Source: a virus (lineage: Duplodnaviria; Heunggongvirae; Uroviricota; Caudoviricetes). From it: 64,000 nt of DNA. The DNA lies in IMG/VR virus record IMGVR_UViG_3300046002_005803, positions 1-64,000 of that record. One strand, 5' to 3'. The notes below the pieces were generated by a model. That model was not told the DNA's origin. It made no database searches and worked only from the letters and a program-made list of their open reading frames with translations. This document shows positions 14,288-64,000 of the stretch, piece after piece. Within the stretch, counting starts at the first letter, position 1; each line of letters begins with the position of its first letter. A program made the position numbers and the translations under genes.

Positions 14288-14497
14288 TTAAACCCCAAAA
14301 TGTTTTTTAATCGTTTTATCAATTCTCCGCTGATACCGTTCGTCGGTAAATGTTTGCGGAAACAGTTCAGCACATTCCCGCACAATCAACTGAGCAAACT
14401 TTTCAACAAAATCTTTACTGTACGGAATAGTCACAGGATATCCATCCGGACTTTGGTGTGATGCCTGTTCAGCAAGTGATAGAATTCGTTCGTTCAT
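14288..14497 (-). CDS. HFGVEE-family small protein (paralog 4; ends HFGV)
   Basis: MNERILSLAEQA...KFAQLIVRECAEL...KHFGV*. Confidence 0.5.
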   Translation of the reverse strand: MNERILSLAEQASHQSPDGYPVTIPYSKDFVEKFAQLIVRECAELFPQTFTDERYQRRIDKTIKKHFGV

Positions 14498-40058: not shown

Positions 40059-40529
40059 TTAGCTGACTTCTGTACGCCCGTCACCCAAATCCTTAGCACG
40101 GACCACTCTCATATCAGTAGCTTGTGCCCGATTCTCGGGATCGGCTTGCTGCTGTTCATATAGCTCTAATGCCACATTGCGGCAAACCGTCTGAAACCAC
40201 CGATCGACTATGATAGTATCACTATCATCATCACGCATCTTATACCCTGCACGAATTAAATTTAATACAAATTTGTCATTAAAATCAAGTTCAAACGCAC
40301 CGCTGTTAATATCGTACGGATCAATTTCCATCTTTAAAATATTAACATAGGGAAGACCCTCACTATCTGCTTTTGCCTTGTCAGATATAATAGGTGCTTC
40401 TTTCTTTTCCTTAGGTTTGCGTGGTTTCTTTTCCTTAGTAGTCTTTGGCACCTCTGCTACTGGTTCTGGCTCTGGCTCTGGCTTTTTGCCAAATAGTTTA
40501 TCAAATAATCCCATTTTTATATCTTTCAA
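40059..40529 (-). CDS. Hypothetical protein with an N-terminal PEPEPEP / Lys-rich linker
   Basis: ORF; short GAGCCAGAACCAG tandem repeats. Confidence 0.3.
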   Translation of the reverse strand: MKDIKMGLFDKLFGKKPEPEPEPVAEVPKTTKEKKPRKPKEKKEAPIISDKAKADSEGLPYVNILKMEIDPYDINSGAFELDFNDKFVLNLIRAGYKMRDDDSDTIIVDRWFQTVCRNVALELYEQQQADPENRAQATDMRVVRAKDLGDGRTEVS

Positions 40530-41568
40530 ATAATTTAAAACTAGCTAGGTTTTTTCCTTTACTCTCGGTCATTATATCAAAATTGTCAAGAAATGTCAAT
40601 GCCCAATCGTTAACCGCAGTATTCCAATAGTGGTCGCTATGTGCCCGAAGTTTCTGTTTATTATACCCTGCATTAATCAACGCACCATGATCGGGTAATT
40701 GTGTAGTGGAATGATCTGTGAGTACATTTTCGCGGCTAACACTGTAATGCATAGTAGGGCGAACACCACGCCAACTATCAATAACCCGTTGTACAAGCGT
40801 ATCAGTAGATTGAATATATTCACCTTCACGAATCCAGTTGTGATGGATATCGAGTACCGTAGGCACGAGGTCAGATAACGATAAGCAGTCAGATAGTCCA
40901 TGTGTGTATTCCTCATTTTCTAGTGTAAGTGTGTTTCGGGCTTCTGGGGACAAACGACCATAAACATCTCTGATACCCTGAGGCCCTTTTCTACCAGAAA
41001 TGTGTACATTAACTTTGAAGTCTTGAAATGATTTGCCATAGCCCATCCAACGAACCATGTCACAATGATATTCAAATTCTTCTATACTCTTATTTACTAC
41101 TTCTTCACGGTCACTCGCTAAAACTGTAAATTGTCCGGGGTGCATACTAAGACGAACATCATTGGCTCTAGCTGTTTCACCAATTGGTGCCATCCAGTGT
41201 GCTAGTTTGTTTTGAATATCACTATCTTGCCAGAAGTCTTTCCAGTCATCATGGGTGTAAAAACTCAGCATGTCACTAGTCAGACGAACCATGCGTAGTT
41301 CGGGTTGTAGTGTTGCTACCTTTTTGACTAGATTATGAGTATGTAGAATGTTGCGTTTGGCAACTTCAATTACCTTTTCTTCTGCTACACTACGCTTTTG
41401 CCTTGCGGCCCAAGCCAGAGTAGTACCGCCTGTATTCAATTCAGGTATGCTGGTAATCTCACCCTTCTTGTTTAGTTCTGAAAATTTGCAAGCAAATCCA
41501 ATCCGTTTGATATTATTATTTGTCAAGATAAAAGCCCAAAGCGATAAATAAGATATGTATTGTCGCAT
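40501..41568 (-). CDS. Putative UV-damage endonuclease (UvdE-like TIM-barrel) or other xylose-isomerase-like fold enzyme
   Basis: Motif flow LHPGQF ... HISG ... TLENEEYTH ... LDIHHNWI resembles UvdE; tentative. Confidence 0.35.
   Translation of the reverse strand: MRQYISYLSLWAFILTNNNIKRIGFACKFSELNKKGEITSIPELNTGGTTLAWAARQKRSVAEEKVIEVAKRNILHTHNLVKKVATLQPELRMVRLTSDMLSFYTHDDWKDFWQDSDIQNKLAHWMAPIGETARANDVRLSMHPGQFTVLASDREEVVNKSIEEFEYHCDMVRWMGYGKSFQDFKVNVHISGRKGPQGIRDVYGRLSPEARNTLTLENEEYTHGLSDCLSLSDLVPTVLDIHHNWIREGEYIQSTDTLVQRVIDSWRGVRPTMHYSVSRENVLTDHSTTQLPDHGALINAGYNKQKLRAHSDHYWNTAVNDWALTFLDNFDIMTESKGKNLASFKLFERYKNGII
41543..41550 (+). promoter_or_regulatory. Possible T4-type late promoter element (GATAAATA, compare T4 TATAAATA) upstream of the plus-strand operon
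   Basis: ATAAATA about 55 nt upstream of the ATG at 41606. Confidence 0.25.
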
Positions 41569-41605: not shown

Positions 41606-42796
41606 ATGAGATTTAATGAAATTATATCCGAAGCAGGTAGTCCTGCCCAACAAGCAGCAATTGCAATTGCCATGAAAAAAGCTGGAAAGAAGCCAAAGCA
41701 AGGTGTGGCGGAAGGCAACCTAGAAGAAATTGACCGCAGAGGATTCTTAAGAGGCTTGGGTGCGGCCACTGTGGCAGGTGCGACTAATAATGCAATGGCT
41801 GCTCTAGGGTCACCTACTGCTCCAAGGGCACAGGTTAAAGTGCCGCCTGTGCCACAGTTACCCGCACGAGACGGTGATCTAGGTAATGGCAATAGAGTAA
41901 CAACAAACAAAGATGGTACTAGAACTTATTCTGGCGGGTTTGGTTCATTTACATACAATGCTCAGGGTAAGGCTATAACATATAGTAGTCCTAACTTTAA
42001 TGGATCTGGCCAAACCATCGACTTAACTACTAATCAAATTACGCAAAATTACAATGCAGGACCATTGAAGATTAAACAAACTACCGATGCTACCGGTAAG
42101 CAAGTAGCGGCTGATAAATCATATGATCTTGGTGCAGCAACTGTCAGACAGCAAACCGACGCAACGGGGAAAAATACTAACACAGCTTATGTTCCAATGG
42201 ATGATACAACTCATGTTGTAGATAAACCAACCCTTAGAAAAGCCTTTGCGAAATGGCTGCCGGAAGGCTCTGAGGCAAGTGATAATCTAGTATCCACACT
42301 GAATTCTTTCGGATATTACTCTGACAACAGTAGTGTTTATGCAAATGATGACGGTGATAAGATTGTTCGTCAAGGTTCTAATTGGAAACATCAAGATGGT
42401 CAACGTGGTACTGGTGCTGAAGAATTAGGTAATTTCCTCAGTTCACAAGAAGTTGATGAAGGCGAAACTTGGTCAAAGCATAACAACCCAAGAGCAGGTG
42501 GGATGAGTAAAAAGTCTGTTAGTAGCTATCGCCGCAGTCATCCTGGTAGCAAGATTCAAACAGCGGTAACAACTAAGCCAAGCAAACTTAAAAAAGGTAG
42601 CAAGGCAGCAAAGCGTAGAGCTAGCTTTTGTGCCAGAATGCGTGGAATGAAGAAACATCGTACTGGTGCAAAAACAGCAAGAGATCCAAATAGCAATATA
42701 AATAAAAGTTTGCGTAGATGGCATTGCGAAAGCATTGAAGAACTACATGAATTAGTAATGCTTGCTGAACAATTTATTAGGAATAACAAGAAATGA
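41606..42796 (+). CDS. Capsid-targeted (CTS-bearing) protein with internal Tat-like twin-arginine signal and highly basic C-terminus
   Basis: N-terminal MRFNEIISEAG (CTS-like), then DRRGFLRGLGAATVAGATNNAMAALGSP (S/T-RRxFLK-like motif plus hydrophobic h-region), a Gly/Thr/Asn-rich middle and a KR-rich tail. Confidence 0.5.
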   Translation: MRFNEIISEAGSPAQQAAIAIAMKKAGKKPKQGVAEGNLEEIDRRGFLRGLGAATVAGATNNAMAALGSPTAPRAQVKVPPVPQLPARDGDLGNGNRVTTNKDGTRTYSGGFGSFTYNAQGKAITYSSPNFNGSGQTIDLTTNQITQNYNAGPLKIKQTTDATGKQVAADKSYDLGAATVRQQTDATGKNTNTAYVPMDDTTHVVDKPTLRKAFAKWLPEGSEASDNLVSTLNSFGYYSDNSSVYANDDGDKIVRQGSNWKHQDGQRGTGAEELGNFLSSQEVDEGETWSKHNNPRAGGMSKKSVSSYRRSHPGSKIQTAVTTKPSKLKKGSKAAKRRASFCARMRGMKKHRTGAKTARDPNSNINKSLRRWHCESIEELHELVMLAEQFIRNNKK

Positions 42797-44448
42797 ACTT
42801 CAAAGAATTATTAGAAGGCGCAGAGCCAAAGTTGCCGGGCGCCCCAAAGGGTATCTCAATTATGACACCTCAGCAATTTGTTGCTAGTGCTGGTGATATG
42901 CCAGATGAAGAAGTAGATGAAGGCAGATTTACACATGGTCCAGGTGGCGTTCCACTTGATCGCCAGGGTAATCCCAAGGTAGCAAAGCCAGCTATGCCTA
43001 AATTATCAAGAATGTCTGCACCAGAACCTAAATTAGATTTAGATAAGATTTGGTTTGATGTTACTCAGATCATCAGCAACATTTTCCCAGATGGTGATCC
43101 AGCTGACTACTTGCCAAAGTATGCCCGCAAACATGGGATAACATATGATGATATTCGCGCAGCAGCTAAAAAGAATGGTTATGAAGATGAGTATGCTTAC
43201 ATTGATGATATGAAAACCGGTGACTATGGTTATGATGAGCAAAGTTTAGCGGAAGGTGAAGAACATCTAGCAAGAATTCGTAGTCTATCTGGACTAGATG
43301 AAGCAACTAAACTACCAGCACAAACTCGTGACTTAAAGGGTCAAGAGTTTCAAGATTACATGAAACGAATCGTTGGTACTCCCGATGTAGATAAAGCAGG
43401 CAATGTTAAAGTAGATAAAAAGGGCAATGAAAAATATACAACTGGTAAAACTAAAGGTGACAAGTACAAGATGCCTTACATCCATCGTAGTAGTGTAGTT
43501 ACATACTTAAGTCCAGATGGTAAAACATACGATGAAGATGCTGTTAAACAAACATTAGCAATTCGTCCCAAAGCATTACTTAAACAAAACGAAAAGATGA
43601 AGCACAGCAATGGTGAGTTTGAACAATTCTTTAATGTTGGGTTCGCGGCATTGGTAGGTATTGCATTAGATGAACAAACAAATAATCTAATTGTTGTTAA
43701 CACATGTCCAGGCGCCGGCTCTTGTAAAGTTGATTGTTTCGCCATGAAGGGCGGCAAGATTCAATTTAAGGCTGCATGGCAAAGTGACGGCAGAATACTT
43801 ACATATCTGTTGAATGATCCAGATGGTTTCTTTAATCAACTAAGCAATGAAATCTCTGCTGAATCACAAGAGGGTGCTGCAGGCGATAAGAAATTCCCCA
43901 ATGGATGGAAAGTAACGGTTCGTTGGCATGATGCCGGCGACTTCTTCAGTCCAGAATACTTGGATATGGCATTAAAAATGGCTGCTAAACATCCTGATGT
44001 TAGATTCTATGCGTACACTAAGATGGCAGGAGCAGCATTAGCTAAGAAGCCAGATAACTTCATCATCAATTGGAGTGAAGGTGCTAACACCGAGCAAGAG
44101 AAACAAGTAAAGGCTCAGGATCCTAAATTAGATAAGACAAAGAACAGTCGTATTGTTCCAGAGAAACTATTCTATGACTTATTGGCCAAGGATGAGAAGG
44201 GTAACTTGAAAAAGACGGATGACGGAGCATGGCAACCTGCTGATGACGCAGCACTTAAACAAATGAAACAACGAATTGCTAACGAATACGGCATTAGTTC
44301 TTCAAGTATTTTAAGTTATAATGAATATATGTCTAAGAGAAATTCAATTCCAGCTGGAATGAAGTACAATGTTATCGTTGCACCGGGTGAAGGTGATGTT
44401 AGTGCGAATGATCCTGGTGTATTGAGTACCCTATTGTTAAGACATTAA
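42793..44448 (+). CDS. Capsid-targeted (CTS-bearing) large protein, function unknown
   Basis: N-terminal MNFKELLEGAE; ATGA overlap with the upstream gene; 551 aa. Confidence 0.45.
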   Translation: MNFKELLEGAEPKLPGAPKGISIMTPQQFVASAGDMPDEEVDEGRFTHGPGGVPLDRQGNPKVAKPAMPKLSRMSAPEPKLDLDKIWFDVTQIISNIFPDGDPADYLPKYARKHGITYDDIRAAAKKNGYEDEYAYIDDMKTGDYGYDEQSLAEGEEHLARIRSLSGLDEATKLPAQTRDLKGQEFQDYMKRIVGTPDVDKAGNVKVDKKGNEKYTTGKTKGDKYKMPYIHRSSVVTYLSPDGKTYDEDAVKQTLAIRPKALLKQNEKMKHSNGEFEQFFNVGFAALVGIALDEQTNNLIVVNTCPGAGSCKVDCFAMKGGKIQFKAAWQSDGRILTYLLNDPDGFFNQLSNEISAESQEGAAGDKKFPNGWKVTVRWHDAGDFFSPEYLDMALKMAAKHPDVRFYAYTKMAGAALAKKPDNFIINWSEGANTEQEKQVKAQDPKLDKTKNSRIVPEKLFYDLLAKDEKGNLKKTDDGAWQPADDAALKQMKQRIANEYGISSSSILSYNEYMSKRNSIPAGMKYNVIVAPGEGDVSANDPGVLSTLLLRH

Positions 44449-45344
44449 TGAGAGCAACTGAATTTATCGCAGAAGCAATACTAGATGAAGCAGCTACTGC
44501 TATTGTCTACCATTATGCCGGTGTATCTGCTGCTGCAAAAATTCTAACTACTGGAGTTTTTCAATTAAGTAGTGTCACAGGTAACTCTAGTGAAGAACAA
44601 TATGCACCGCCGGGATATCTTTACTTTCTAAGCACAACTCGCAGCAAAGTGGGAGACTATCACCGATATACTGGTAGCAGCGCCGCTATGTTTGTAATTG
44701 ATGGGAACTGGTTAAATCGGCATTACAAAACAAAAGCAATTGATTATTGGGAAAGGTCTTGGCAACATAGTAACGGTACTCGTACCAGTGAAAGCGAAGA
44801 TAGAGTATTTTCAAAGACACCTGAAATTCCAATTAACGGAGTAATTGCTGTTCATGTTTTGCTCAAAGAACAGAGCGAAAATCGTAGCCCCGAAGTTAGA
44901 ACAATTTTAATCACTGCCAAGAAGCAAGGTATATCAGCTTACTTATACACAGATGAGAAGGCATGGCGTTTACAAGATACCCGCAAAGCAGTTACTCCCG
45001 GTGACGCTGCTAAATTGCTTAAAGGACAACAACCAAAAGGTTACACACCAAGTCGTCCGCCGACAATGTACCTTGAACCGTGGGTAGAACTAATATATAA
45101 AAACAAAAAATCAGATTTAACTAGCCGTGCTGAAAAGTTGCGATATGAATTAGTCTACTATGGCAGTAGACGTCCAGATTCCGATAGTAATCTTGGTGTA
45201 GATATGAGCAATGCTCGTAAACCTAATTCTACTGATTATCCAACTGCTGTTAAATTAAATGATTTTATGCGTAAGAATAAGTTACCAGATACAGTAGCAC
45301 TTAAAAATATGCTAGTTGATAAATGGGTTAAAATTAAATCTTAA
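44448..45344 (+). CDS. Capsid-targeted (CTS-bearing) protein, function unknown
   Basis: N-terminal MRATEFIAEAI is almost identical to the T4 IPI/II/III CTS core (EFIAEA); TAATG coupling. Confidence 0.5.
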   Translation: MRATEFIAEAILDEAATAIVYHYAGVSAAAKILTTGVFQLSSVTGNSSEEQYAPPGYLYFLSTTRSKVGDYHRYTGSSAAMFVIDGNWLNRHYKTKAIDYWERSWQHSNGTRTSESEDRVFSKTPEIPINGVIAVHVLLKEQSENRSPEVRTILITAKKQGISAYLYTDEKAWRLQDTRKAVTPGDAAKLLKGQQPKGYTPSRPPTMYLEPWVELIYKNKKSDLTSRAEKLRYELVYYGSRRPDSDSNLGVDMSNARKPNSTDYPTAVKLNDFMRKNKLPDTVALKNMLVDKWVKIKS

Positions 45345-46167
45345 GCAAATCTTCCAAAGAGTATACCTCTTTCATATAGGGTGACACATTATCTAATACA
45401 GATATTGCTAAGTCACCCTTTCTTCTTGGGCCTATCTTTGTAAGCAAATTAATATTAGGTATATTATTTACTTCTTTGAACTTATTAACTATCTCGGCAA
45501 CAGTATAACCTACCCCATGCCCTAAACATTCTATTTGATTACTTGGCTTCTCAATAGCAGTACATAATGCGTCACATATCTCGTTAACATGAACATAATC
45601 ACGAATGCAGGTTCCATCTCGTGTATCATAATCATTGCCAAAGATGGTAAACTCGCCTCTTTCCTTAGCCTTCATTAGATTATACATTAATCCATCAGGA
45701 TTGGTTGGATCAAACCCATCACTACCAATAACATTGTAGAATCTAAATATTGTATAAGGTTTAGGATTATGCTGAGTAAAATACTCACGCACCACATCCT
45801 CTGCTGCTCGTTTACTAATGCCATACGCACTAGCACATCCCACTGCTGCTCCAGTGCTGGCAAATATAAAGTTCTTTGTCCGTACCTTATTGATAACATT
45901 CATTGTACCATTCAAATTAGTGATGTAATAACTTAGTGGGATACGCTCACTTTCACCCACATTGACTAGTGCTGCCAAGTGAATCGTTGCATCAAACTCG
46001 GTTGGTAATTCAAATAGTCTACGAATATCAACTTGATAGAATTCTTGTAATCCGTCAGCTTGCGGAACATTGATATCTAGGCCGTGTACCTCGTAGTCAT
46101 TTGCTAGCATCTTAACTAGATGACTACCAATGTAACCCGAACAACCTGTAATTAATATTTTTTTCAT
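45334..46167 (-). CDS. NAD-dependent epimerase/dehydratase (extended SDR)
   Basis: N-terminal Rossmann ILITGCSGYIGSHL; catalytic YxxxK (YGISKRAAE). Confidence 0.65.
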   Translation of the reverse strand: MKKILITGCSGYIGSHLVKMLANDYEVHGLDINVPQADGLQEFYQVDIRRLFELPTEFDATIHLAALVNVGESERIPLSYYITNLNGTMNVINKVRTKNFIFASTGAAVGCASAYGISKRAAEDVVREYFTQHNPKPYTIFRFYNVIGSDGFDPTNPDGLMYNLMKAKERGEFTIFGNDYDTRDGTCIRDYVHVNEICDALCTAIEKPSNQIECLGHGVGYTVAEIVNKFKEVNNIPNINLLTKIGPRRKGDLAISVLDNVSPYMKEVYSLEDLLKI

Positions 46168-47507
46168 TCAAAACTAAAAAGACTCTCGCCTTCTTCCTCT
46201 GGTTCAAACGACGGGTCCTTACTCAAGTAAGTATCATCGTCCGTGTATAGTATACGAAACTTATGCTTGTTTGTCAATACTGATTTGATATCATCAATGC
46301 ATAACAAGCTACGACCTAACTGTGTATTAAAATCACTCAATTTAATTGTGGGTTCTTCGCATATCTTTGCAGTGTTGCTATTAGACTTCTTGCCTTCAAA
46401 TTCATTGAAGCAGGTATTCCACTTGTGAAATACAGTGGCTTCCACTTGTCGTGCATGTGTTAATGAATCTAAGTTGTACCAAGTTGCGGCGTGTTCAAAC
46501 GAATCATACAACTGTTTTGCTCGTTCAGCCATATTTTTCTTAGTACATTTATAGAAAAAATTCTCGTTGAAATTATTAGTCCAGCGTTGATTCTCTAATA
46601 CTAGTGTAGGCAACTGAATATGTTGCTCATAAAAAGCCATACCATAACTCTCTACATTACTTGGGTTAAAAGCAACTCTGCAACTGGTGATGAAGTCTAC
46701 TTTCGTTTGCCCAATGATACTAACACCAATCTTATAGTCAGTTATTCCCATCTTCTTAAATCGTTCTTCAAACTTCTTAGCACCGTTTGTATTAGTCATA
46801 ACTCGTGCAGGTAATTTAGTTTGTTCAATTAGTTCCAAGTAAAGTTCCGGGTTCTTACCTTCTTCCCATCTGCCAACAAACAATACACCATCACGCGGAT
46901 GGTGATGTTCTTCTAACAAACCTTGTTCGGTGATTGGAATTGGTAAATGATATGAATCATCAATCTCTAATTGATTGAATTTACTCTGTGTACCAATAAA
47001 TATACCAGTAGTAGTAAGCTGTTGACGCATCAACTCATTTGTGTTATGCAAAAAAGGATTACTGGTATCTCTGAAGATTTGACTTTCTAAATGAGTATAA
47101 GCAATTATCTGTATAACATCCTCTAGACCCATTGTACTTGCAACTTGTACAGTTTCATATGTATTGCATACTAATGCATCGTATATATTATGCTCTAATG
47201 CTTCAATGATACTATTGCGAAAGTTAGCCATGCGTTCATAACAAAATGTATCCCCGAACATAAAGATATTACTGTGGTCAGTGTACTTTAATGATTCATT
47301 TGGACAAACAATATTAGCTTTGAGAGATTTAACAAACTCACTATCTTGTGGTTTTTTATCTGTGATAATATCAACTTTAATATTATGAATATCCATCAAT
47401 TCACAAAAACTCTTAGCAAACTGTCCTATTCCACCATGCGGAATAAGATACTGGTAGCTAATTAGAAATCCAATTCGTTTGTTATATGTTCGCATTCTTA
47501 ACCTCAT
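46164..47507 (-). CDS. Glycosyltransferase, GT-B fold (GT4-like)
   Basis: N-terminal IGFLISYQYLIPHGGIGQFAKSF (GT4 N-terminal GG motif); C-terminal GVLFVGRWEEGKNPELYLE and ESYGMAFYEQ (E-x7-E). Confidence 0.5.
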   Translation of the reverse strand: MRLRMRTYNKRIGFLISYQYLIPHGGIGQFAKSFCELMDIHNIKVDIITDKKPQDSEFVKSLKANIVCPNESLKYTDHSNIFMFGDTFCYERMANFRNSIIEALEHNIYDALVCNTYETVQVASTMGLEDVIQIIAYTHLESQIFRDTSNPFLHNTNELMRQQLTTTGIFIGTQSKFNQLEIDDSYHLPIPITEQGLLEEHHHPRDGVLFVGRWEEGKNPELYLELIEQTKLPARVMTNTNGAKKFEERFKKMGITDYKIGVSIIGQTKVDFITSCRVAFNPSNVESYGMAFYEQHIQLPTLVLENQRWTNNFNENFFYKCTKKNMAERAKQLYDSFEHAATWYNLDSLTHARQVEATVFHKWNTCFNEFEGKKSNSNTAKICEEPTIKLSDFNTQLGRSLLCIDDIKSVLTNKHKFRILYTDDDTYLSKDPSFEPEEEGESLFSFE

Positions 47508-47676
47508 CTACCGTTGGAACAGTAATCCAATCAGTTAACTCATTTTGTTTTGTAATTTCACCTGTTTTTGGATTTAGTATACAGTAATCCGGTGTTTCTC
47601 TTTCAAAGCGATATTGTAGTATTTTTTCAGGGCCGTCCCAACCAGCTGTTATAAGCCAGCGCATTTCTAAATTCAT
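47482..47676 (-). CDS. Hypothetical small protein
   Basis: ORF only. Confidence 0.25.
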   Translation of the reverse strand: MNLEMRWLITAGWDGPEKILQYRFERETPDYCILNPKTGEITKQNELTDWITVPTVDEVKNANI

Positions 47677-47897
47677 ATTAAATCCTTTAATCTTGCTATT
47701 AAATATTCATTTTTATCATACCAGCGATATTCAAATATAGGCTCACCGGGACCTGTATACATTGCGGTAATACAATATGCGTACTCTAACCATAGTAGAC
47801 GATTTGTTATATGGCAATGTCTAGGCATAAGTGCAACCTTCAATTGTCTGCCCACAACATGGTCCATGAAGTAGTCATTAGGTATAGGACTGTACAC
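47673..47897 (-). CDS. Hypothetical small protein
   Basis: ORF only. Confidence 0.25.
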   Translation of the reverse strand: MYSPIPNDYFMDHVVGRQLKVALMPRHCHITNRLLWLEYAYCITAMYTGPGEPIFEYRWYDKNEYLIARLKDLI

Positions 47898-47997
47898 TAT
47901 TTAATTCCAGTATAGTCTCTGTCATTTTCATTTGAACGATAGCACATATAGAAAACCCCTACTATATACCCAAGTAAAAATCCCCAAAAGAAATCCA

Positions 47998-48846
47998 TTA
48001 GGTATTCCATGCGTTTTTAAAGAGTGGCACCTGAAGTCTATCACTATAACGCCAGCCTAACCGCATTGCTTCAAGTGCAACTGTTTTGGCATTCATGTTA
48101 TATACACTTTCAACTCCGCCACATGGCATCAAGTAAGCATTACCCCTAAATCCGTGAGTACGATATTGATTAACTGCTTCTTGTGCTTCTTCTACATCTT
48201 GTCTATTGGCCACAACAAACTTCAGATATGTATGACCTACTTGACTATATTCATCAATAATTTCAGGACATATTGCTTCTTCCCACTTCTCGCCACTGAT
48301 ACCAAGTTTAGGACTAACACTAAATGTTATTGCACCTCTAGAACGATTGATGGCCCATTGATGCAAGTAGGTTTTCAATTGATGTTGCAACGGTTGAGTG
48401 CCATTTGTTTCAAATGTTAGTTCTTGTAAACCCGTCATGTTTTCATGTGAAAGTAAATCAATATAACTGCGTTGCCAACCTAGCAAAGGTTCACCCCCTG
48501 TAATAACAAGATGTTCTTCCATCCAACGCTTGTGCGGAAGCATTGTCATAATACTTTCAACAATACTATCAGTAGTACGTATTGGACTGAAATCTTTGAA
48601 ACGAGGATCCCAACTTGCATAACTATCGCAACCTGTACTAACTAATGGTAGTTGGGTGTAAGCCGTGTAGTAATGCACACGGGCTGCGATATCTTCTACT
48701 TCACTACTTATTTCGCCCCTTGGCATACCAAACCCTGCACATTTGAAGTTGCAACCAAATGTTCGTAGGAAAATACTTGGTACTCCGATATATCGGCCTT
48801 CTCCTTGAATACTATAAAATAGTTCACTAATTTTTAATTTGCTCAT
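47998..48846 (-). CDS. queE: 7-carboxy-7-deazaguanine synthase QueE (radical SAM)
   Basis: N-terminal ELFYSIQGEGRYIGVPSIFLRTFGCNFKCAGFG matches the QueE signature (F.S.QGEG...G.P..F.R..GCN..C). Confidence 0.7.
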   Translation of the reverse strand: MSKLKISELFYSIQGEGRYIGVPSIFLRTFGCNFKCAGFGMPRGEISSEVEDIAARVHYYTAYTQLPLVSTGCDSYASWDPRFKDFSPIRTTDSIVESIMTMLPHKRWMEEHLVITGGEPLLGWQRSYIDLLSHENMTGLQELTFETNGTQPLQHQLKTYLHQWAINRSRGAITFSVSPKLGISGEKWEEAICPEIIDEYSQVGHTYLKFVVANRQDVEEAQEAVNQYRTHGFRGNAYLMPCGGVESVYNMNAKTVALEAMRLGWRYSDRLQVPLFKNAWNT

Positions 48847-49013
48847 TTTTTGATCCTTAATCTAACTAATTGCACCTGCTATGATAAACAAGTTTGTAAT
48901 GACATAGCATAACACAATACAAGTTCTAATACACGCAATACGGTCAGATTCTGTATCGGTTGTGCCCGCTTTCTCACCTAGGGATTTTGCCCATATTCTC
49001 CAAAATATCTTCA

Positions 49014-49232
49014 TTATTTCTTTAATGGCTTTAGAGGCATATCAGGAAATGAACCCCATGCTTGTTTCAATTCGGCTGAAACTCCTTCTGGTCCTCCACT
49101 ATTTACCCACGCACGATTGATAACAACAGTTGGATTACCATTGACTATAACATATCGTGTAAGAAAGTCACTGTAATCATAAGTACCATCAGGTACCCAT
49201 TTAAACATTTTAAAGTCTGAATCAGAACTCAT
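49014..49232 (-). CDS. Hypothetical small protein
   Basis: ORF only. Confidence 0.25.
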   Translation of the reverse strand: MSSDSDFKMFKWVPDGTYDYSDFLTRYVIVNGNPTVVINRAWVNSGGPEGVSAELKQAWGSFPDMPLKPLKK

Positions 49233-49732
49233 TCAAACAAATCCTCATTCCATTCACGATGCCCCTCTCTAAAAGCCATATTTGCCTGTGTTTCACGTAC
49301 TTCAACCCGATAGCACCACAAACGCTTTGCTTCACTTTCACCCCACATATCAGGAATGTAAACCCCGTTAACATACTTGTATAGCATATCTGCAAGACTT
49401 TCACATCCTAAGTTGGGGAGAATAGTTAATTTCATAATGCCACGATGTTCCGCCTGCACATACCAGTCTAGATGTGGATCTGATTCAGCCACTAATGTTG
49501 TATGGTCAAATTGACTCTCTAATGTTTGCTTTAGTTCTTTCAAGCCGCCATAATCCGCAGCCCATCGGCGCGCATCTAAGTCGTTTGTTCCAAAATAGAA
49601 CTTCATTGAGAAGCTATAACCATGTAAAAACTGGCAATGGCTGTCGGCTTTGTACTGTCTATAAGCACAGGGGAACGCATCGTGATACTCTTTTGTGGAA
49701 GTCCACTTATATGTTACTGGTAGTTGTGTCAT
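49229..49732 (-). CDS. queD: 6-carboxy-5,6,7,8-tetrahydropterin synthase QueD-like (PTPS family)
   Basis: FPCAYRQYKADSHCQFLHGYSF compares with QueD FEAAHRL...KCGRLHGHSF (CxxxHG(H/Y) zinc motif). Start moved to the ATG at 49732 (MTQLPVTY) to abut the upstream gene. Confidence 0.6.
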   Translation of the reverse strand: MTQLPVTYKWTSTKEYHDAFPCAYRQYKADSHCQFLHGYSFSMKFYFGTNDLDARRWAADYGGLKELKQTLESQFDHTTLVAESDPHLDWYVQAEHRGIMKLTILPNLGCESLADMLYKYVNGVYIPDMWGESEAKRLWCYRVEVRETQANMAFREGHREWNEDLFE

Positions 49733-49733
49733 T

Positions 49734-50213
49734 TTACTTATCTTTTTGATGTGCGTCCGCAACTCGTTTACGTAGACTTGAACTACTGAAACTGTGATCA
49801 CGCTCATTAAATACTATTTCAATTCTGCGAGTTTGACAAATATCGCTACCCGTAAAATCCTTATCTTTGTATTCTACACCCAAGATACGAACATCAATAG
49901 GTAGTATGAGTAGAATATCTTCCAAGTCCTTCTCAGTATTGTAAACAACAATTTCATCTACAAAACGGACAGCACTTAAACTAATCTGCCTCTCAACAAT
50001 ACTTTGAATAGGAGCATTCTTCTCCGCTCTATCCCATTGTGCGTTATTCTGCAAACCAGCAATAAGATAGTCGCAATGATTTTTAGCTTCACTAAGCATT
50101 GCAATATGCCCGGCATGTAGAATATCAAATTGGGAGAATACGATACCTATCTTAAGCCCTTGTTGTTTTAGTTCTTTGATTCTGTTGAATATCATTTTTT
50201 TAATGTTCTCCAC
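49734..50213 (-). CDS. Cytidylyltransferase-like nucleotidyltransferase (HxGH family)
   Basis: GIVFSQFDILHAGHIAML has the (T/H)xGH motif; about 160 aa as in TagD/RfaE-domain-II-type enzymes. Confidence 0.55.
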   Translation of the reverse strand: MENIKKMIFNRIKELKQQGLKIGIVFSQFDILHAGHIAMLSEAKNHCDYLIAGLQNNAQWDRAEKNAPIQSIVERQISLSAVRFVDEIVVYNTEKDLEDILLILPIDVRILGVEYKDKDFTGSDICQTRRIEIVFNERDHSFSSSSLRKRVADAHQKDK

Positions 50214-50503
50214 ATCTTTATTTTAGAATGTTCATCAAGAAATTCTTCTTCGCCGGCGAATGTAGGTGAATCAGCCATAATCTCATCAAGCAACCACTTG
50301 ATACGATGTAAGTCTTTTTTGATTTCAAACTGATTGAAACCATCGTTGTAGTTGCTATGCAATTCTATTCCAGCTGTGTAAATTTGATGATGAACACCGG
50401 TATAGTCCATTGGTTTACGAAATCCCATTTTTTCCTCTGCATGTACAGTTACGACCTTGATTACAATTTCCGGTACATACCGAGTTTGTACTTTTCCAAG
50501 CAT
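50192..50503 (-). CDS. Hypothetical protein
   Basis: ORF only. Confidence 0.3.
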   Translation of the reverse strand: MLGKVQTRYVPEIVIKVVTVHAEEKMGFRKPMDYTGVHHQIYTAGIELHSNYNDGFNQFEIKKDLHRIKWLLDEIMADSPTFAGEEEFLDEHSKIKMWRTLKK

Positions 50504-50596
50504 TAGTAAATATTGATATAAATGCTGCTAGCAGTGGATTTAGTATATATCCAATTATAATTCCCATCATCAAATTGTCTATATTGATCCAGTTCA

Positions 50597-51271
50597 TTAT
50601 CGTCCCCTTGCTAATTGATAGAATTCTGCTCTAGCTGCTGGATCAGTTTTAAACCCACCACCTAATCTACTTGTTACAGTACTACTACCCGTATCCTCAA
50701 CTCCCCTGCTTTTCACACAGTAATGTTGTGCGTCAACCATAACCGCAACATCTTCTGTTTCAAGTATGTATTGTAATGCGTGAAAGACTTGTTCTGTTAA
50801 TCGTTCTTGGATTTGTGGTCGCTTGCTAAAGTATTCTACGATACGATTGATTTTACTCAATCCAAGTACCTTTTGTTTAGGCACATATGCGACAGTTGCT
50901 AGACCGGAGATAATCACTAAATGATGTTCACAATTACTTTGTACATTAATATTGCGTTCACATACCATTTCATTGTACTTCATTTTGTTATCAACTGCGG
51001 TACATTTAGGGAATGCTTCGTAATCAAGACCCCAAAAGATTTCGTTGACATACATTTTTGCTACACGCTTTGGGGTATCCATTAAACTATCGTCTGATAA
51101 GTCAAGACCTAAGATACGCATAATATGTGCAAAGTGCGCTTCAATATGGTCTATCTTTTCTTTACGGTCGTAGTTGTTTGGGATAGTAGGAGTTTCAACT
51201 CCCATCTTAACTAAATGTTCGTGTACTCGTTGACCCAACTCTGGGTCTGTTTTTTGCTTATTATACGCCAT
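50597..51271 (-). CDS. folE: GTP cyclohydrolase I (FolE)
   Basis: DTPKRVAKMY, NVQSNCEHHLV (CEHH), QERLT motifs in canonical order. Confidence 0.85.
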   Translation of the reverse strand: MAYNKQKTDPELGQRVHEHLVKMGVETPTIPNNYDRKEKIDHIEAHFAHIMRILGLDLSDDSLMDTPKRVAKMYVNEIFWGLDYEAFPKCTAVDNKMKYNEMVCERNINVQSNCEHHLVIISGLATVAYVPKQKVLGLSKINRIVEYFSKRPQIQERLTEQVFHALQYILETEDVAVMVDAQHYCVKSRGVEDTGSSTVTSRLGGGFKTDPAARAEFYQLARGR

Positions 51272-54623: not shown

Positions 54624-55190
54624 TCACTTCCAATATGGGCCCCATGCCCAACAATTCAGTGACCATCGTTCACCTGCTGTTATTGGTTTTACTTCATGTA
54701 AATAGAATGCAGGTAAAATGGTCAATGATCCTATTGTTTTACTTACCGCATTCCTAATTACATGAAGATTGCCTCCCTGATATTCTGATCCATCAGTTAA
54801 TTGCAATAGCATTGTTAATTTTCGTTCAGTACCTGCTGTGCCATAATATTGGTCAACATGTTCTGTGACGTAATCTCCTTCGCTATATCTTTTTATCTCA
54901 TATTGTTCTACATGAGTTACATGAAAACCATAATAGTTAAACGCTTCTTCCCAAATAGGAGACAATATTTCGTGTAATTTATTGTCATTCCAATTTAAAG
55001 GTACTCTACAAGTATGGCATTCAATGTCCCAATGTTTGGGAGTACGATTAACAGAACGATGCCAGCCTGATTCACTGCTTAATGCAAACTCTCGTAGTGA
55101 ATGGCAAATATCAAAACTTAATGCTTTTTCTTTTTTAAATAATTTTATTGGGAAACTATTATTTCTAGTAAATTCAATTTGTTGTATCAT
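54624..55190 (-). CDS. 2OG-Fe(II) oxygenase (prolyl-4-hydroxylase-like)
   Basis: HVDQYYG...LHVIRN...HEVKPI form an HxD...H triad plus an Arg in the jelly-roll region; common in T4-like phages. Confidence 0.6.
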   Translation of the reverse strand: MIQQIEFTRNNSFPIKLFKKEKALSFDICHSLREFALSSESGWHRSVNRTPKHWDIECHTCRVPLNWNDNKLHEILSPIWEEAFNYYGFHVTHVEQYEIKRYSEGDYVTEHVDQYYGTAGTERKLTMLLQLTDGSEYQGGNLHVIRNAVSKTIGSLTILPAFYLHEVKPITAGERWSLNCWAWGPYWK

Positions 55191-58267: not shown

Positions 58268-58876
58268 TCAAACATTTTGCTGATTTTCTACAATCTTTTT
58301 TACCACCGTTCTTAGCCCGGGGTTAATATGGAATGCGTGTGGTATAATATGTTGTCTGACATAGTTACGCATATATTTGGTGTCATCATTACTATTATCG
58401 TGACACCAATCAATAGATTTCTGTTTACACCAATTTGTGAATTCGGTTTTAGTTGTTGTTAGAAATGGGCGTACTACATTGTTTCTTTTTGCTGGGATAA
58501 CTTTTGCCTGGCCATGCATTGATGACCAAAGATATGTTTCTACGCAGTCATCTAAGTGATGACCGGTAATAATTGGACCCAATGAATCACCAAAGCTGTC
58601 CAAGAAGTCATAGCGTTCGTTGCGCCAGTGTTCTTCTGTACTAAGTACTTTAGGTTTATCATTCTTAATCAGGCCAACCATAAGTGGAAGATTTCGTTCA
58701 GTGCAGAATTTAGCAACAAATTCAAATGCCCGTTCACTATTCTCTGTTCCATGATGGAAGAAAGCGCAAGTTACTTTATGTTTACGGGAAAGGAAATCTG
58801 TAATAGCAACAGAGTCAACCCCGCCGCTTAGTGCGACAACAACTTCTTTTGGCAACGGAAAGAGTAGTTTAAGCAT
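58268..58876 (-). CDS. PP-loop ATPase, TilS (tRNA-Ile lysidine synthetase) N-terminal-domain-like; QueC-type alternative not excluded
   Basis: SGGVDS PP-loop (VVALSGGVDSVAI) and ITGHHLDDCVETYL, which matches the TilS GHHxDDQxET motif. Confidence 0.5.
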   Translation of the reverse strand: MLKLLFPLPKEVVVALSGGVDSVAITDFLSRKHKVTCAFFHHGTENSERAFEFVAKFCTERNLPLMVGLIKNDKPKVLSTEEHWRNERYDFLDSFGDSLGPIITGHHLDDCVETYLWSSMHGQAKVIPAKRNNVVRPFLTTTKTEFTNWCKQKSIDWCHDNSNDDTKYMRNYVRQHIIPHAFHINPGLRTVVKKIVENQQNV

Positions 58877-58902: not shown

Positions 58903-59487
58903 TTATTGAAAGATTTCCGGGTGATCTTTGCCAAATACTTTCATATATTTTCCGGCACTCATATCAGCTAGCATTTCAATTGGACTACCTGGGTAACTAT
59001 CACCTGGTTTAATCATATCCAATTCACCTTGACGGACATGAGTAAGTTCATGCAGGACCGTACGCATAATATCAACCATATTACGATTAGCAACATATAC
59101 CCAAACATTATTATCATTTGTACTATGGCGACCAGTATGATGACCTTCTTGTGCTTCTTCAGTATCGTAGCTGAATTCAATTTCGGGTACTGATTGTAGA
59201 TTAAGTTTTTGTGCTGCAAATTGAATGAATTTCTGCATTATTGGGTTATCTGCTAAAAAGTCTGGTTCGTCATTTTCTTCATCTAGCTTGCCCTTAACCC
59301 AGTTATCCGGTGATCGTTTGAATTTCCGCACAAATAGGTCATGTAGTGCTTTGCTAGTAATACTATGTCTACTAGCAACTTGACGCATTAATTTGTCAAT
59401 CGTTGTGTAGTCATGTTTTTGCAATGACGGCAAGCGTTTTGCCAATTCATTTGTAGCGGATTCAATAATAATGTGTTCAGTGAGCAT
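58903..59487 (-). CDS. Hypothetical protein with HExxH motif (VLHELTHV)
   Basis: Motif only. Confidence 0.3.
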   Translation of the reverse strand: MLTEHIIIESATNELAKRLPSLQKHDYTTIDKLMRQVASRHSITSKALHDLFVRKFKRSPDNWVKGKLDEENDEPDFLADNPIMQKFIQFAAQKLNLQSVPEIEFSYDTEEAQEGHHTGRHSTNDNNVWVYVANRNMVDIMRTVLHELTHVRQGELDMIKPGDSYPGSPIEMLADMSAGKYMKVFGKDHPEIFQ

Positions 59488-60076: not shown

Positions 60077-60517
60077 TTAATTACACCAACTAGTTTTAGC
60101 TTCACCATAGTATTCTCGGGCAAAACCTTGACTAATTAACATTTGTCTAAGACTTTGTCCATTTAATATTACATCACCCAACACACGCCCGCCATACTTG
60201 TCCCAATCCATGAGAACAATTTGTCTTTTAGTTGCTACTTCAATTGCATGTTTAGTGAAGGCAGTTGCTGCTTGACCTCGTTGCTCCTCACTAGGACATT
60301 TTGCCCTGAAACCTTTTTCCGGTGTATCAACACCAAACACACGAATACTTAATTCTTTCTTTAATGGATCAGGTAAGAACGGTGCGTGAAAGGCTACCGT
60401 ATCACCATCAATAACCCTAGTTATTACAGCATCATATGTTACACCTTCTTTTTGTTTTTGTGCTAATACAACACTAGATAGTATTGTCAATGCTAATAAT
60501 ATTATTATTTTTTTCAT
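60077..60517 (-). CDS. Secreted staphylococcal-nuclease-like (SNase/thermonuclease) protein
   Basis: Signal peptide MKKIIILLALTILSSVVLAQ; VIDGDTV...RVFGVDTPE...DKYGGRVLG...G.AREYY follows the SNase core pattern. Confidence 0.7.
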   Translation of the reverse strand: MKKIIILLALTILSSVVLAQKQKEGVTYDAVITRVIDGDTVAFHAPFLPDPLKKELSIRVFGVDTPEKGFRAKCPSEEQRGQAATAFTKHAIEVATKRQIVLMDWDKYGGRVLGDVILNGQSLRQMLISQGFAREYYGEAKTSWCN

Positions 60518-61890
60518 GTTGATTTAATGCGTTTCTTGTAATCTATAAAGTTTGCGTGTCTATCTTCTAATCCTGATAGTGAAGAATTAATTTTCTTAGT
60601 AACTGCGGCAGTATCATCAAAGTTATTTATCCCCGGTTTAACTCTTGTGTTCCAATACCACAGTGCTACCTTTAACGCTATGTCAGGCCTTGCTGCAAGT
60701 TCAGGTTGTTTGAGTAAGTTTATCTTCAAGGCGTCACCTGCCATACGATAGTTGTCACGACCGGTCAATTGAATATATCCTCTGCCGTGATATCTAGCAC
60801 CATCTCCCACTTGTTTATTACCAAGTATCTTAGCAGTTCTGGGTGAATGTTTAACATCGTATTTTTTAGCAAAATAATCTTTTACCTTTGGTTGTGGCTT
60901 TTCTTGTAACCTACTAAAATTCCAAGTTTCATGTTTCGTCTGAGCTAAAAATTGTGCTAATTCTGATCCCTTCATTCCTTCTTTTTTTGCAGTTTGATAT
61001 AAAACATTTTCTGCTTGTGTATCTACTGTGGGAGATGCTGCTTTAACTACGGGTGTTGCTGCTTTAACTTGTACTTCAGGAGCAGCATCGGGTTGAGTTA
61101 TTTTAGATATTTTAGCTGTTCTAACTGGTTCTACCGGAGAATTATATTGATTAGCAGCACCTAATGCTCCCAATGCCATAGCACCACCAGCGACCCAGTT
61201 CTTCCAATCTTCTTCTAAATCATCTAGTTCAACTAATTGTCTATATGGCTCATCACCGGTCCATCTTGAACCCTGATCCATTGCTTCGCCGACTGCTGGA
61301 TCCCACTTCATGCTCTTACTACCCTTGTGTATAGGAGCGAAGCCTTGCCCCTTGTAGAACTTTGTTAGTTTACTTTGACTTACTTGACCGTGTTGCCAAG
61401 GGAACAATGTTAGTGCAATTCCATCTGCTTGTGCCATGGCTTGCAATTCTTTCATTGCGCGTGAGCCGACCCCTTGACGTAGTGGATATGCTTGAAACCA
61501 TTTTACTTCTACTGCACCTCGTTTGCTGAAACTTGGGGTTAGTTCAAACATTGCAAGCTGCTGAGTGTCACCTTCGCCCCACATCATTACATGATTATTT
61601 TTAAAGATAGTTGGATACTTTTGATAGACCTTTTCAATCCAAGCCTTTGCGGCATCGTTGTTGCTTATTTTGATTGGTTCATCTTCCTTCATTAATTTAC
61701 TAATGCGAGGCTTGAATAACTGTACTTCACCTTTGTTAGTTTTTAGTACAGGTTGATTGTGCTTGTCTTTAGTAAAGCCTTTAATCTCTGCTGGACTATT
61801 CTTAAATTTACCCTTGAGGATTTTATCACCAACTGATAACTTGGGCGGTTGATATGAGGCAGTCTCATTAATAAATTCAATTGCTCTCAT
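60514..61890 (-). CDS. Capsid-targeted (CTS-bearing) fusion protein: GNAT-like acetyltransferase domain plus glycoside-hydrolase family 19 lysozyme/chitinase domain
   Basis: N-terminal MRAIEFINETA; GNAT motif A VKWFQAYPLRQGVGSRAM; GH19 catalytic/signature segments KHETWNF, YHGRGYIQLTGRDNY, VALWYWN. Confidence 0.6.
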   Translation of the reverse strand: MRAIEFINETASYQPPKLSVGDKILKGKFKNSPAEIKGFTKDKHNQPVLKTNKGEVQLFKPRISKLMKEDEPIKISNNDAAKAWIEKVYQKYPTIFKNNHVMMWGEGDTQQLAMFELTPSFSKRGAVEVKWFQAYPLRQGVGSRAMKELQAMAQADGIALTLFPWQHGQVSQSKLTKFYKGQGFAPIHKGSKSMKWDPAVGEAMDQGSRWTGDEPYRQLVELDDLEEDWKNWVAGGAMALGALGAANQYNSPVEPVRTAKISKITQPDAAPEVQVKAATPVVKAASPTVDTQAENVLYQTAKKEGMKGSELAQFLAQTKHETWNFSRLQEKPQPKVKDYFAKKYDVKHSPRTAKILGNKQVGDGARYHGRGYIQLTGRDNYRMAGDALKINLLKQPELAARPDIALKVALWYWNTRVKPGINNFDDTAAVTKKINSSLSGLEDRHANFIDYKKRIKST

Positions 61891-62330
61891 TACTCACGGG
61901 CTTTTTTAAGTGTAGCACGAATCATCCATGCTTTCTTGGCATATAAGTCTTGTAGTTCAGCTAGATAATTGGCAATTCCCTGTGCTTTTTCTTCTGTTGC
62001 AATGTCAAATAATTCAGTTACTAACTTAATCATTTTTTCACAATCAACTAGTAGTTCTTCAAGCATTAATTCAGCACGAGGAATTTTATGTTGTTCTTCA
62101 ATGATACTCAATTCAAGCATTCTGCCTAAGCTGCCTGGAGAATAACTGCCTAAAGTTCTGATATATTCGGCAATAGTATCAATAGTTCCATAGATTTCAT
62201 CATACATTTTATTTAAAAATTTATGATATTGCGGGAAATTGCTTCCTTCGATATTCCAGTGAAATCCGTGAGTTTTTGTATACAGTACAAATGTACTGCC
62301 CAATAGTGTTTTTAAGTTATCTGATAACAT
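61890..62330 (-). CDS. dps: Dps (DNA-binding ferritin-like protein)
   Basis: FVLYTKTHGFHWNIEGSNFPQYHKFLNKMYDEI is the Dps ferroxidase-centre signature (LYqKTHnFHWNvkG.nF..lHe.fee.Yde). Confidence 0.8.
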   Translation of the reverse strand: MLSDNLKTLLGSTFVLYTKTHGFHWNIEGSNFPQYHKFLNKMYDEIYGTIDTIAEYIRTLGSYSPGSLGRMLELSIIEEQHKIPRAELMLEELLVDCEKMIKLVTELFDIATEEKAQGIANYLAELQDLYAKKAWMIRATLKKARE

Positions 62331-63974: not shown

Positions 63975-64000
63975 TTGTTGTAATTGCGCTTGGGTCTTGC

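Follow-up and report, generated by a model that had tools for sequence, protein, structure and literature searches.

A recurrent N-terminal sequence resembling the T4 capsid-targeting signal on unrelated proteins of an uncultured jumbo phage

The internal proteins IPI, IPII and IPIII and the packaged protein Alt of bacteriophage T4 share a short N-terminal propeptide, the capsid-targeting sequence (CTS; Mullaney & Black 1996), which precedes unrelated cargo encoded in variable loci. Mutagenesis by Mullaney and Black demonstrated that the first ten residues of IPIII suffice for encapsidation, that residues 4 and 7 of the CTS matter for targeting, and that residues 8 and 10 matter for processing (PMC9026906). 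The principle of a conserved CTS, diverse cargo and variable loci is already established for the T-even phages (PMC3012670, PMC9026906). The DNA analyzed here is a stretch of 64,000 nucleotides of IMG/VR record IMGVR_UViG_3300046002_005803 (hereafter the window), in which an earlier note had described a T4-type locus of tagged internal proteins, centered on three genes at 41606-45344. That description is supported by the present sequence analysis. A nine-residue N-terminal tag recurs on at least nine proteins in and around the window, and this tag is likely to be a T4-type capsid-targeting propeptide, in which case the tagged proteins would be packed in the head, trimmed by the head protease and injected with the DNA.

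Two other groups of phage proteins are comparable. The polyvalent proteins of phages and conjugative elements are injected proteins whose repertoire places ADP-ribosyltransferase domains beside GNAT, ParB-like DNase, lysozyme and a dedicated kinase family (Iyer et al. 2017, PMC5512222). The window locus is similar in its domain repertoire, its combinatorial shuffling and its predicted delivery with the DNA, but its domains are spread over many small or medium, individually tagged proteins instead of one giant polypeptide, and the delivery signal proposed for it is a T4-type CTS, which PMC5512222 does not describe. Pfam and PHROG searches of the window and its flanks gave no MuF/portal, MPTase or T4SS domains. 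The second group consists of the dozens of head-internal proteins of the jumbo phages phiKZ, 201phi2-1 and SPN3US, which are cut after Glu by a gp21-related protease, at multiple sites per protein, with a hydrophobic segment exposed afterwards (PMC5694885, PMC7411985, PMC10052503). In contrast to the tag described here, their propeptides are ~80-130 residues long and lack a shared nine-residue motif, their cleavage motif is (S/A/G)-x-E, and they belong to another jumbo group that has a virion RNA polymerase. Full-text literature searches on the capsid-targeting sequence in jumbo phages yielded the phiKZ/SPN3US work alone, with its long, dissimilar propeptides. What is notable in the window locus is the scale, the enzymatic cargo of polyvalent type, the candidate polyprotein linkers, and the wide presence in uncultured freshwater jumbo phages.

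The recurrent tag and its T4 counterpart

The six tagged N-termini reported in the earlier note were all present as described. The genes are listed below, with the predicted cut marked by a slash.

Gene A: 41606-42796, plus strand, 396 aa, MRFNEIISE/A (tag at 41606-41632)
Gene B: 42793-44448, plus strand, 551 aa, MNFKELLE/G(A)
Gene C: 44448-45344, plus strand, 298 aa, MRATEFIAE/A
Gene D: 60514-61890, minus strand, 458 aa, MRAIEFINE/T, start codon at 61890
Gene E: 62333-63484, minus strand, 383 aa, MKPSDFLTE/L, start codon at 63484
Gene F: 1-154, minus strand, N-terminal 51 aa in the window and 160 aa in full, MRSNEFITE/G

The positions first assigned to A, B and C were correct, whereas 60514 and 62333 proved to be the 3′ ends of the minus-strand genes D and E, which start at 61890 and 63484, and F starts at 154 instead of 158. 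Five of the genes (A, C, D, E and F) begin with M-[RK]-x-x-[ED]-[FI]-[IL]-x-E and fit the motif originally proposed for all six, while gene B (MNFKELLEGA) is one residue too short for it. Because its homologues, 120 in number, read MNFKEL[LHYFM]EG at the N-terminus, the gene B tag was taken to be a form that ends in L-x-E/G one residue earlier than the canonical tag (M-x-x-K-E-L-x-E, 8 residues); the B homologue of a 337-kb relative carries the canonical tag MRAHEFLIEN. The conserved canonical N-terminus is M-[RK]-A-x-[ED]-F-[IL]-x-E (9 residues) and is acidic and amphipathic.

The expected number of matches was computed from the N-terminal amino-acid composition of the window's own genes. The strict motif is expected ~0.002 times among 104 gene starts, and the probability of five or more occurrences is ~1e-16. 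When the looser expression M-x(2-4)-[ED]-[FILMV]-[ILVF]-x-E was scanned in six frames over the 64 kb, 6 matches were obtained, and 5 of these are the first codons of long open reading frames (ORFs). The recurrence of the tag in the window is far beyond chance.

The genes flanking the window were read from JGI metagenome contig Ga0485158_0000001 (234,546 bp), of which the window forms part. With these flanks included, the tagged set is extended by the following clear, variant and possible members.

789-aa protein: minus strand, C-terminal part at 63486-64000 (ORF 63486-63974), starts MRFNQIVE/N(T) ~1.9 kb past the right edge
287-aa protein: past the left edge, MRANDFISEN
229-aa protein: past the left edge, MRAKEFLNEL
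609-aa protein: past the left edge, MRAKEFINEE
1021-aa protein: past the right edge, variant tag of the B type, MKISALLEGR
194-aa protein: 58903-59487, minus strand, degenerate tag MLTEHIIIE/SAT (MLTEHIIIESAT); homologues in related contigs have MRA.EFITE followed by a basic extension
509-aa protein: 17994-19523, minus strand, possible degenerate tag MREFINIIKQLTE/S; one homologue starts MRALEFISES
185-aa Fe-SOD-C-like protein: 159-716, minus strand, possible member with conserved MRHLIQLLE/E; homologues have MREFITLLEE
188-aa NT5C-type 5′-nucleotidase: 2028-2594, minus strand, possible member, MMQIRELLE/D

Gene F heads a run of four consecutive tagged genes, and the genes of the 287-, 229- and 609-aa proteins follow it beyond the left edge. 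Some homologues of the 5′-nucleotidase are without the N-terminal extension, and another is embedded by fusion in a 551-aa protein that bears the canonical tag. The set, first put at six or more, is larger, with at least nine clear members and about six variant or degenerate ones, probably about fifteen in all, within ~84 kb.

For comparison, N-termini and the internal gp23 site were read from the T4 record (NC_000866).

IPII and IPIII: MKTYQEFIAE/A
gp24: MAKINELLRE/S
gp22: MLKEQLIAE/A
Alt: MELITELFDE/D
gp21: MNEPQLLIET
gp23 (internal site): ..GSFLTE/AEIGG

The proposed match to the T4 CTS is borne out by gene C, whose core EFIAE/A is identical to that of IPII and IPIII, and gp24, gp22, Alt, gp21 and gp23 have (F/L)-(I/L)-x-E/ sites of this kind as well. 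The near-invariant tag residues F6, I/L7 and E9 map to T4 CTS positions 7, 8 and 10. The tag logo is partly biased by the way in which the IMG/VR matches were selected, and the gene C family, which was not so selected, gives the same pattern. As in T4, the predicted cut follows a Glu and would be made by a protease of the gp21 type, whose cleavage logo the tag motif fits. The differences from T4 lie in the tag, which is 9 residues long (8 in B), one shorter than that of T4, and starts with MRA instead of MKTYQ; in the number of tagged genes, at least nine and probably ~15 in 84 kb compared to a handful; in the cargo, which consists mostly of large multidomain enzymes instead of small basic proteins; and in internal GVAEG linkers that suggest polyprotein-like processing.

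Bodies and linkers behind the tag

When the first 12 residues were removed from 15 tagged proteins, BLASTP gave no cross-hits among them at E<=1e-3, in agreement with the earlier statement that the bodies are mutually unrelated. The proteins range from 160 to 1021 aa and are mostly enzymes, so that they resemble Alt and not the small, basic, DNA-associated classical internal proteins. Several effector domains in one polypeptide were found in the 609-aa protein and in gene D, and most of the other tagged proteins have one or two modules.

Structure prediction had been proposed for both of the large unknown proteins, and it was informative for the 298-aa C and not for the 551-aa B, whose AlphaFold (AF2) model had a pLDDT of 48, too poor for a fold search. 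The modeled fold of C is an ADP-ribosyltransferase beta-sandwich core, nearest to Tpt1 and DarT, and a helical domain forms the C-terminal part. Residues 1-15 have pLDDT <50 in the model, with the tag predicted to be disordered, and the fold begins at residue 19. Residues H22, Y59, R65, E115, E117 and R119 are invariant across 37 homologues and are candidates for the catalytic His, Arg/Tyr and Glu of this fold, and gene C is predicted to be a member of a new Tpt1/DarT-like ADP-ribosyltransferase family. This modeled fold is a further likeness to T4, in which the packaged Alt is annotated as an ADP-ribosyltransferase.

The remaining bodies were assigned from profiles or by eye. Gene A consists of the tag, a basic helix, a QGVAE/G linker (aa 32-37), a hydrophobic RRGFL segment, a Thr/Gly-rich middle and a C-terminal DUF6321 domain. 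Its residues 41-64 (41726-41797) are Tat-like, with IDRRGFL, an Ala/Gly-rich stretch and AxA, and were matched by Pfam TAT_signal at E=0.002, below the curated cut-off. A Tat-like segment placed directly behind the tag or a linker would form the new N-terminus once the tag was removed; at IMG/VR locus L020 (2992-3612), RRGFL immediately follows the tag, ahead of a GH19 domain. Such segments hint that some of the cargo may be re-exported to the periplasm or inserted in the membrane. Gene B consists of the short tag, a conserved 35-aa segment that ends in EEVDE/G, an insert of ~100 aa, a SLAE/G linker (aa 151-155), and a conserved body of ~400 aa with a Pfam GP88 domain. Searches of PDB by profile and sequence gave nothing useful for B or for the 229-aa and 1021-aa proteins. 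In gene E, two QGV[SA]E linkers (aa 92-96 and 225-229) are accompanied by Cys-rich basic C-terminal modules (DUF5872-like, phrog_727). The gene F body has a ParB/Srx-like motif, EGNHR, seen by eye and negative in Pfam. For the 609-aa protein, profile searches gave a hit to GNAT and a weak one to Kinase-PolyVal, and a second GNAT-like and a ParB-like motif were seen by eye.

Gene D carries, behind the tag, a region with a GNAT-like motif, a hydrophobic segment (aa ~232-246) and a GH19 muramidase/chitinase-type domain (aa 299-419); the GH19 assignment is a profile hit, while the GNAT-like region was read by eye and had no profile hits. In T7 (gp16) and P22, ejection of the DNA is preceded by that of a head-internal protein that can cleave peptidoglycan through one of its domains, and the product of gene D may behave likewise. 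These ejection proteins of T7 and P22 are not known to carry a cleavable tag at the N-terminus, and they follow another assembly route and are unrelated in sequence. By their domain assignments, the tagged bodies are effector-type enzymes. An anti-defense role for them is a guess, and the domains are equally compatible with host takeover.

The tag is found in front of many combinations of such bodies. Nearly all of the gene C homologues (n=120) start with MRA.EF[IL].E, MKI.ELI.EA or MRLQELLEAA. In the longer ones (404-464 aa), the tag is at the extreme N-terminus and an unrelated domain, which is GNAT-like or ParB-like by eye or of no recognizable kind, is inserted between the tag and the C body. 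The homologue in Salicola phage SCTP-2 starts at the body and is without a tag, and that in the KVP40-like Vibrio phage D484 (253 kb, with rIIA/rIIB) begins MKKFNEFAKELEE. In relatives, the bodies found in A, D, E, F and the 609-aa protein turn up at other positions in differently composed proteins that are almost always tagged. In the 337-kb relative, nine tagged genes are clustered beside the family-B DNA polymerase gene (PolB), six of them consecutive, and a close variant of this locus differs by gene insertions and fusions.

IMG/VR was also scanned with a degenerate DNA pattern for MRA.EFI.E, and at least 119 loci matched. Among the matches listed, 142 of the 144 strict ones are the starts of ORFs of at least 60 aa, and the tagged ORFs fall into at least 38 unrelated body clusters. 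Further genes of the window are shared by 65 of the at least 119 loci (PolB by 22), so these loci are mostly fragments of the freshwater lineage to which the window belongs. The commonest tagged family among the matches listed is ~125 aa long (MRA.EFI.E..GKIS...), is often found as tandem pairs ~400 bp apart, and was seen at L014-L016, L034, L036, L078 and other loci; it had no Pfam hits and no matches in cultured phages, and it is absent from the window. On sequence evidence, the tag behaves as a portable module, placed before unrelated bodies that recombine within hypervariable arrays. The domain shuffling and the differences in gene content between relatives are the behavior expected of the hypervariable locus envisaged in the earlier note.

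Inside the tagged proteins, the motif QGVAEG, the two copies of DVAEGS and the motif SLAEGE that had been proposed as additional protease sites were all present. The tagged proteins (5,181 aa) contain 12 matches to the pattern [VIL][AS]E[GE] and the untagged proteins (20,263 aa) contain 5, a nine-fold enrichment in which the 12 matches are not independent because 9 of them lie in the repetitive 789-aa protein. In that protein, nine [VIL][AS]EG linkers separate short repeated units (GSKYPWLDSPRKKP...). The repeat is ~22 residues long, GSKYPWLD[SN]PRKKP..EK[DG]V[AS]E, and each unit ends in a candidate protease site (63486-64000; L135 7630-9999). The 789-aa protein looks like a precursor of small internal peptides. 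In the gene B alignment, the insert of ~100 residues differs between homologues and is bracketed by EEV.E-G and QGVAE-G; the gene B linker is SLAEG and most homologues have QGVAEG at this position. This layout is what would be expected if hydrophobic-x-E/G sites were cut to free separate modules. The idea that the VAEG motifs are cleavage sites gains support from their enrichment in tagged proteins and from their position at the flanks of the hypervariable insert of B.

Head proteins of relatives and alternative explanations

Capsid targeting of the T4 type requires a gp21-family (Peptidase S77) protease, and such a protease was inferred for the window phage because related phages encode one. 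In the jumbo-phage group concerned, gp20 and gp21 orthologues are reported to occur throughout (Iyer et al. 2021, PMC7824862). The protease of K64-1 (RaK2-like) is 34% identical to T4 gp21, and head proteins of this phage start with MLFKDIFE/S, MTKLEKLLKE/S and MSNKLLTES, while its capsid protein contains ..RALFESATAG. Vibrio phage 2.275.O has an annotated 'prohead core protein serine protease' and a capsid gene 8 kb upstream of PolB, and its head proteins start with MKLVELFE/A(N) and MSKLEQLLKE/S. Phosso, 2.275.O and K64-1 each have a major capsid protein of the gp23 type. According to the RaK2 paper, the capsid protein migrates below its predicted size, which is consistent with cleavage.

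A widespread freshwater/marine clade has the gene order Portal_T4, 80-aa protein, acidic scaffold, Peptidase_S77, scaffold, Gp23. The N-termini in this clade are MLLKEFIYF for the 80-aa protein, MKLSYLREH for Peptidase_S77 and MLDAFKQLVES for the scaffold. Its Gp23 contains ..RKYLAESATAGA, with the major capsid site ..RKYLAE/SATAGA, and the nearest cultured relatives of this capsid protein are those of Vibrio 2.275.O (71%) and Phosso (70%). At seven metagenomic loci of the clade, a tagged ORF is located 9.5 kb upstream of the capsid gene of the portal-S77-scaffold-gp23 module, and these ORFs start with MRINDIILES, MKIYEIISEQ, MKINELLVES and the like. A similar association is found in a cultured phage of 141 kb, Alishewanella phage Slicko01 (OQ508956.1), in which an array of 7-8 genes at 85888-91558 has starts of the form MKI[DE].LYES.LEE, with C-like bodies in several of the genes, and a gp20/gp21/gp23-type head module is present at 136048-141377. 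The gp23-like capsid gene of Slicko01 (140130-141377) is annotated as 'DNA polymerase I', apparently a misannotation. Slicko01 would offer a tractable system for testing tag-directed packaging.

From these features we infer a course of events that runs from late expression through scaffold binding, cleavage and capsid residence to ejection and action on host targets. The tagged proteins would be made late in infection, and the tag would bind the scaffolding core so that each protein becomes enclosed in the assembling prohead. The gp21-family protease would then cut after Glu9 (Glu8 in B), at hydrophobic-x-E/, and remove the tag, and the same protease would probably cut the internal G-V-[AS]-E/G linkers to give separate modules and short peptides. 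The mature enzymes would remain in the head together with the packaged DNA, be delivered with it when the next host is infected, and act in that host before any phage gene is expressed. As candidate activities, they might ADP-ribosylate nucleic acid or protein, acetylate, phosphorylate, nick DNA or cleave peptidoglycan locally.

Several observations weigh against this proposal. The phage is uncultured, and packaging, cleavage and injection of its proteins are predictions from sequence. Neither a gp21-family protease nor a gp22-type scaffold was detected in the window and the 10-kb flanks, and scans of IMG/VR and metagenomes for protease, major capsid protein and PolB, together with a capsid homologue search, found no head module linked to a contig with window genes. 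Likewise, the head proteins of T4 and K64-1 had no matches in the window or in the tag-bearing loci examined. In RaK2, the nearest relative with a virion proteome, hydrophobic-x-E within the first 12 residues was found in 3 of 10 virion proteins detected by mass spectrometry and in 6 of 48 non-virion proteins of the stretch compared (95-145 kb); the closest virion-protein site is that of gp135, MSDIKKIME/A. The window shows no enrichment of the T4 late-promoter motif TATAAATA (4 copies compared to ~10 expected), and two of the four copies lie just upstream of tagged genes, at 160-167 (minus strand) for F and at 42697-42704 (plus strand) for B. The Fe-SOD-like and 5′-nucleotidase bodies are housekeeping-like and would be odd cargo. 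To these points may be added the dependence among the linker matches and the Clp genes of the phage, which are considered below.

Of the other explanations, the one that survives best is that the tag, cleaved or not, directs proteins to the prohead where they remain as scaffold or inner-body components, DNA-condensing proteins or in-capsid enzymes and are not injected. The 789-aa protein, with its nine VAEG-separated units, resembles a precursor of the T4 gp22/gp67/gp68 type, and the basic Cys-rich modules (DUF6321, DUF5872-like) could bind DNA. However, most of the bodies are enzymes with substrates that are found only in cells (ADP-ribosyltransferase, GNAT, GH19 and a weak kinase hit), and the hypervariability between close relatives fits conflict genes and not structural parts. 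A scaffold or inner-body role is plausible for the 789-aa protein and not for the enzymes, and as an account of the whole set this explanation is unlikely.

A role of the tag as a degron or adaptor signal, by which ClpXP or the ClpA/B-like ATPase of the phage would destroy potentially toxic enzymes at a set time, is conceivable because the phage encodes ClpP, ClpX and a ClpA/B-like ATPase; the tag is also terminal, short and disordered in the gene C model. Yet the tag has the very core of the CTS of T4, a phage without Clp genes, the same motif is found on head-scaffold and capsid proteins of relatives, and the internal VAE/G linkers would have no role. The tag is also not known to resemble the published ClpX N-motifs. 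We regard the degron as a poor candidate.

Selection might instead act on the nucleotide sequence, with the tag region serving as a 5′ coding cassette that boosts initiation, or as microhomology for cassette exchange, and with the peptide itself irrelevant. Most tagged genes are translationally coupled (ATGA/TAATG overlaps), the bodies behind the tag are rampantly shuffled, and modular exchange in T4-like phages has been proposed to depend on conserved flanks (PMC4122927). Against this, the tag codons differ synonymously (TTT/TTC, ATC/ATT/ATA, GAA/GAG) while the amino acids are constant, the longest DNA stretch common to the tag-coding ends is only ~10-12 nucleotides, and conservation tracks the residues that matter in the T4 CTS. 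This explanation is very unlikely to be sufficient, and a nucleotide-level role could coexist with targeting instead of replacing it.

The weakest alternative, that the tag is part of an export or membrane-insertion signal for secretion to the periplasm during infection (with D, for example, as an exported endolysin), draws on the RRGFL segments of gene A and of the IMG/VR GH19 protein and on the hydrophobic segment before the GH19 domain of D, but it is hardly credible, as the tag is acidic and amphipathic and not signal-like, most of the bodies act in the cytoplasm, and SPN3US gp47, a known ejection protein, also exposes a hydrophobic segment after propeptide removal (PMC5694885). As a general explanation, a Tat or export signal was rejected since the segment is present in only 2 of 161 tagged proteins.

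Genomic setting and implications

The window has a GC content of ~38%, and its genes include those for an ATP-dependent ligase, an RNase H-like 5′-3′ exonuclease and a family-B DNA polymerase of the T4 type, together with genes for UvdE, ClpP, ClpX, 7-deazaguanine synthesis and glycosyltransferases. The nearest relatives of PolB by tblastn are the proteins of Sinorhizobium phage Phosso (48%) and Vibrio phage 2.275.O (47.5%), which are the top two, with further matches to Atu_ph07, XaC1 and RaK2/K64-1 at 42-47%. These relatives make up 'group 2.2' of the jumbo phages of the T4 superfamily as defined by Iyer et al. 2021 (PMC7824862), and the PolB matches place the window phage as a member of this T4-superfamily jumbo group that is only distantly related to T4. 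At the nucleotide level, megablast of the locus gave no matches to cultured phages. The genome is probably ~344 kb, because a contig of 344,054 bp carries a protein 96% identical to gene B.

Other features of the window were noted apart from the tagged genes. A second recurring N-terminus, MNERI.QLA.QA, is found on three small paralogues at 10590-10832, 11322-11555 and 14288-14497 (minus strand). An island of bacterial-looking genes at 2715-7247 (plus strand), transcribed opposite to its neighbors, encodes an SBP_bac_3 periplasmic solute-binding protein, an SDF-type Na+:dicarboxylate symporter of 428 aa, an Asp/Glu racemase, a Peptidase_S11/beta-lactamase-like protein and a small secreted protein; it is not an assembly chimera, because two independent contigs show the identical arrangement. 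The Clp set consists of ClpP (16603-17190) and ClpX with a zinc finger (21501-22703), and is completed by a 753-aa ClpA/B-type double-AAA ATPase past the right edge (L135 1-328). A cluster resembling those for DNA hypermodification (45334-51271, 54624-55190 and 58268-58876) contains an NAD-dependent epimerase, a glycosyltransferase, radical-SAM QueE-like, PTPS/QueD and cytidylyltransferase-like proteins, GTP cyclohydrolase I, a 2OG-Fe(II) oxygenase and a QueC/ATP_bind_3 protein, and suggests 7-deazaguanine, possibly sugar, modification. Accessory genes at 741-953, 61890-62330, 60077-60517 and 40501-41568 are of the IF1/eIF-1A-like, Dps/ferritin, staphylococcal-nuclease-like (with signal peptide) and UvdE UV endonuclease types, and the Dps/ferritin gene sits between the tagged genes E and D.

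A broader picture can be drawn, which we offer tentatively as somewhat more likely to need revision than to hold in full. In it, an abundant lineage of freshwater jumbo phages would use the nine-residue tag as a universal 'shipping label'. The enzymatic modules recombined freely behind this label would number in the dozens, with ADP-ribosyltransferase, GNAT, ParB-like, kinase-like, muramidase, nucleotidase and unknown types among them. The G-V-A-E/G linkers would be prohead-protease cut sites that give several effectors or peptides per precursor, and the injected arsenal could be read with a simple motif.

Proteins that are packed in the head and injected normally come to light only when the virions of a cultured phage are analyzed by proteomics. 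Should the tag function as it does in T4, such proteins could be listed from sequence alone for a whole clade of uncultured jumbo phages, and the same listing would be possible for Slicko01-like and KVP40-like phages with related tags. Since the tag is nearly identical to that of T4, it should be directly testable in the existing T4 expression-packaging system. The principle of the T4 CTS would be extended across a deep branch of the T4 superfamily, and the comparison with polyvalent proteins suggests that their domains could have a second delivery route, by a cleavable tag instead of one giant fusion. The tagged set would then be a catalogue of candidate enzymes for early host takeover or anti-defense, including many unknowns.

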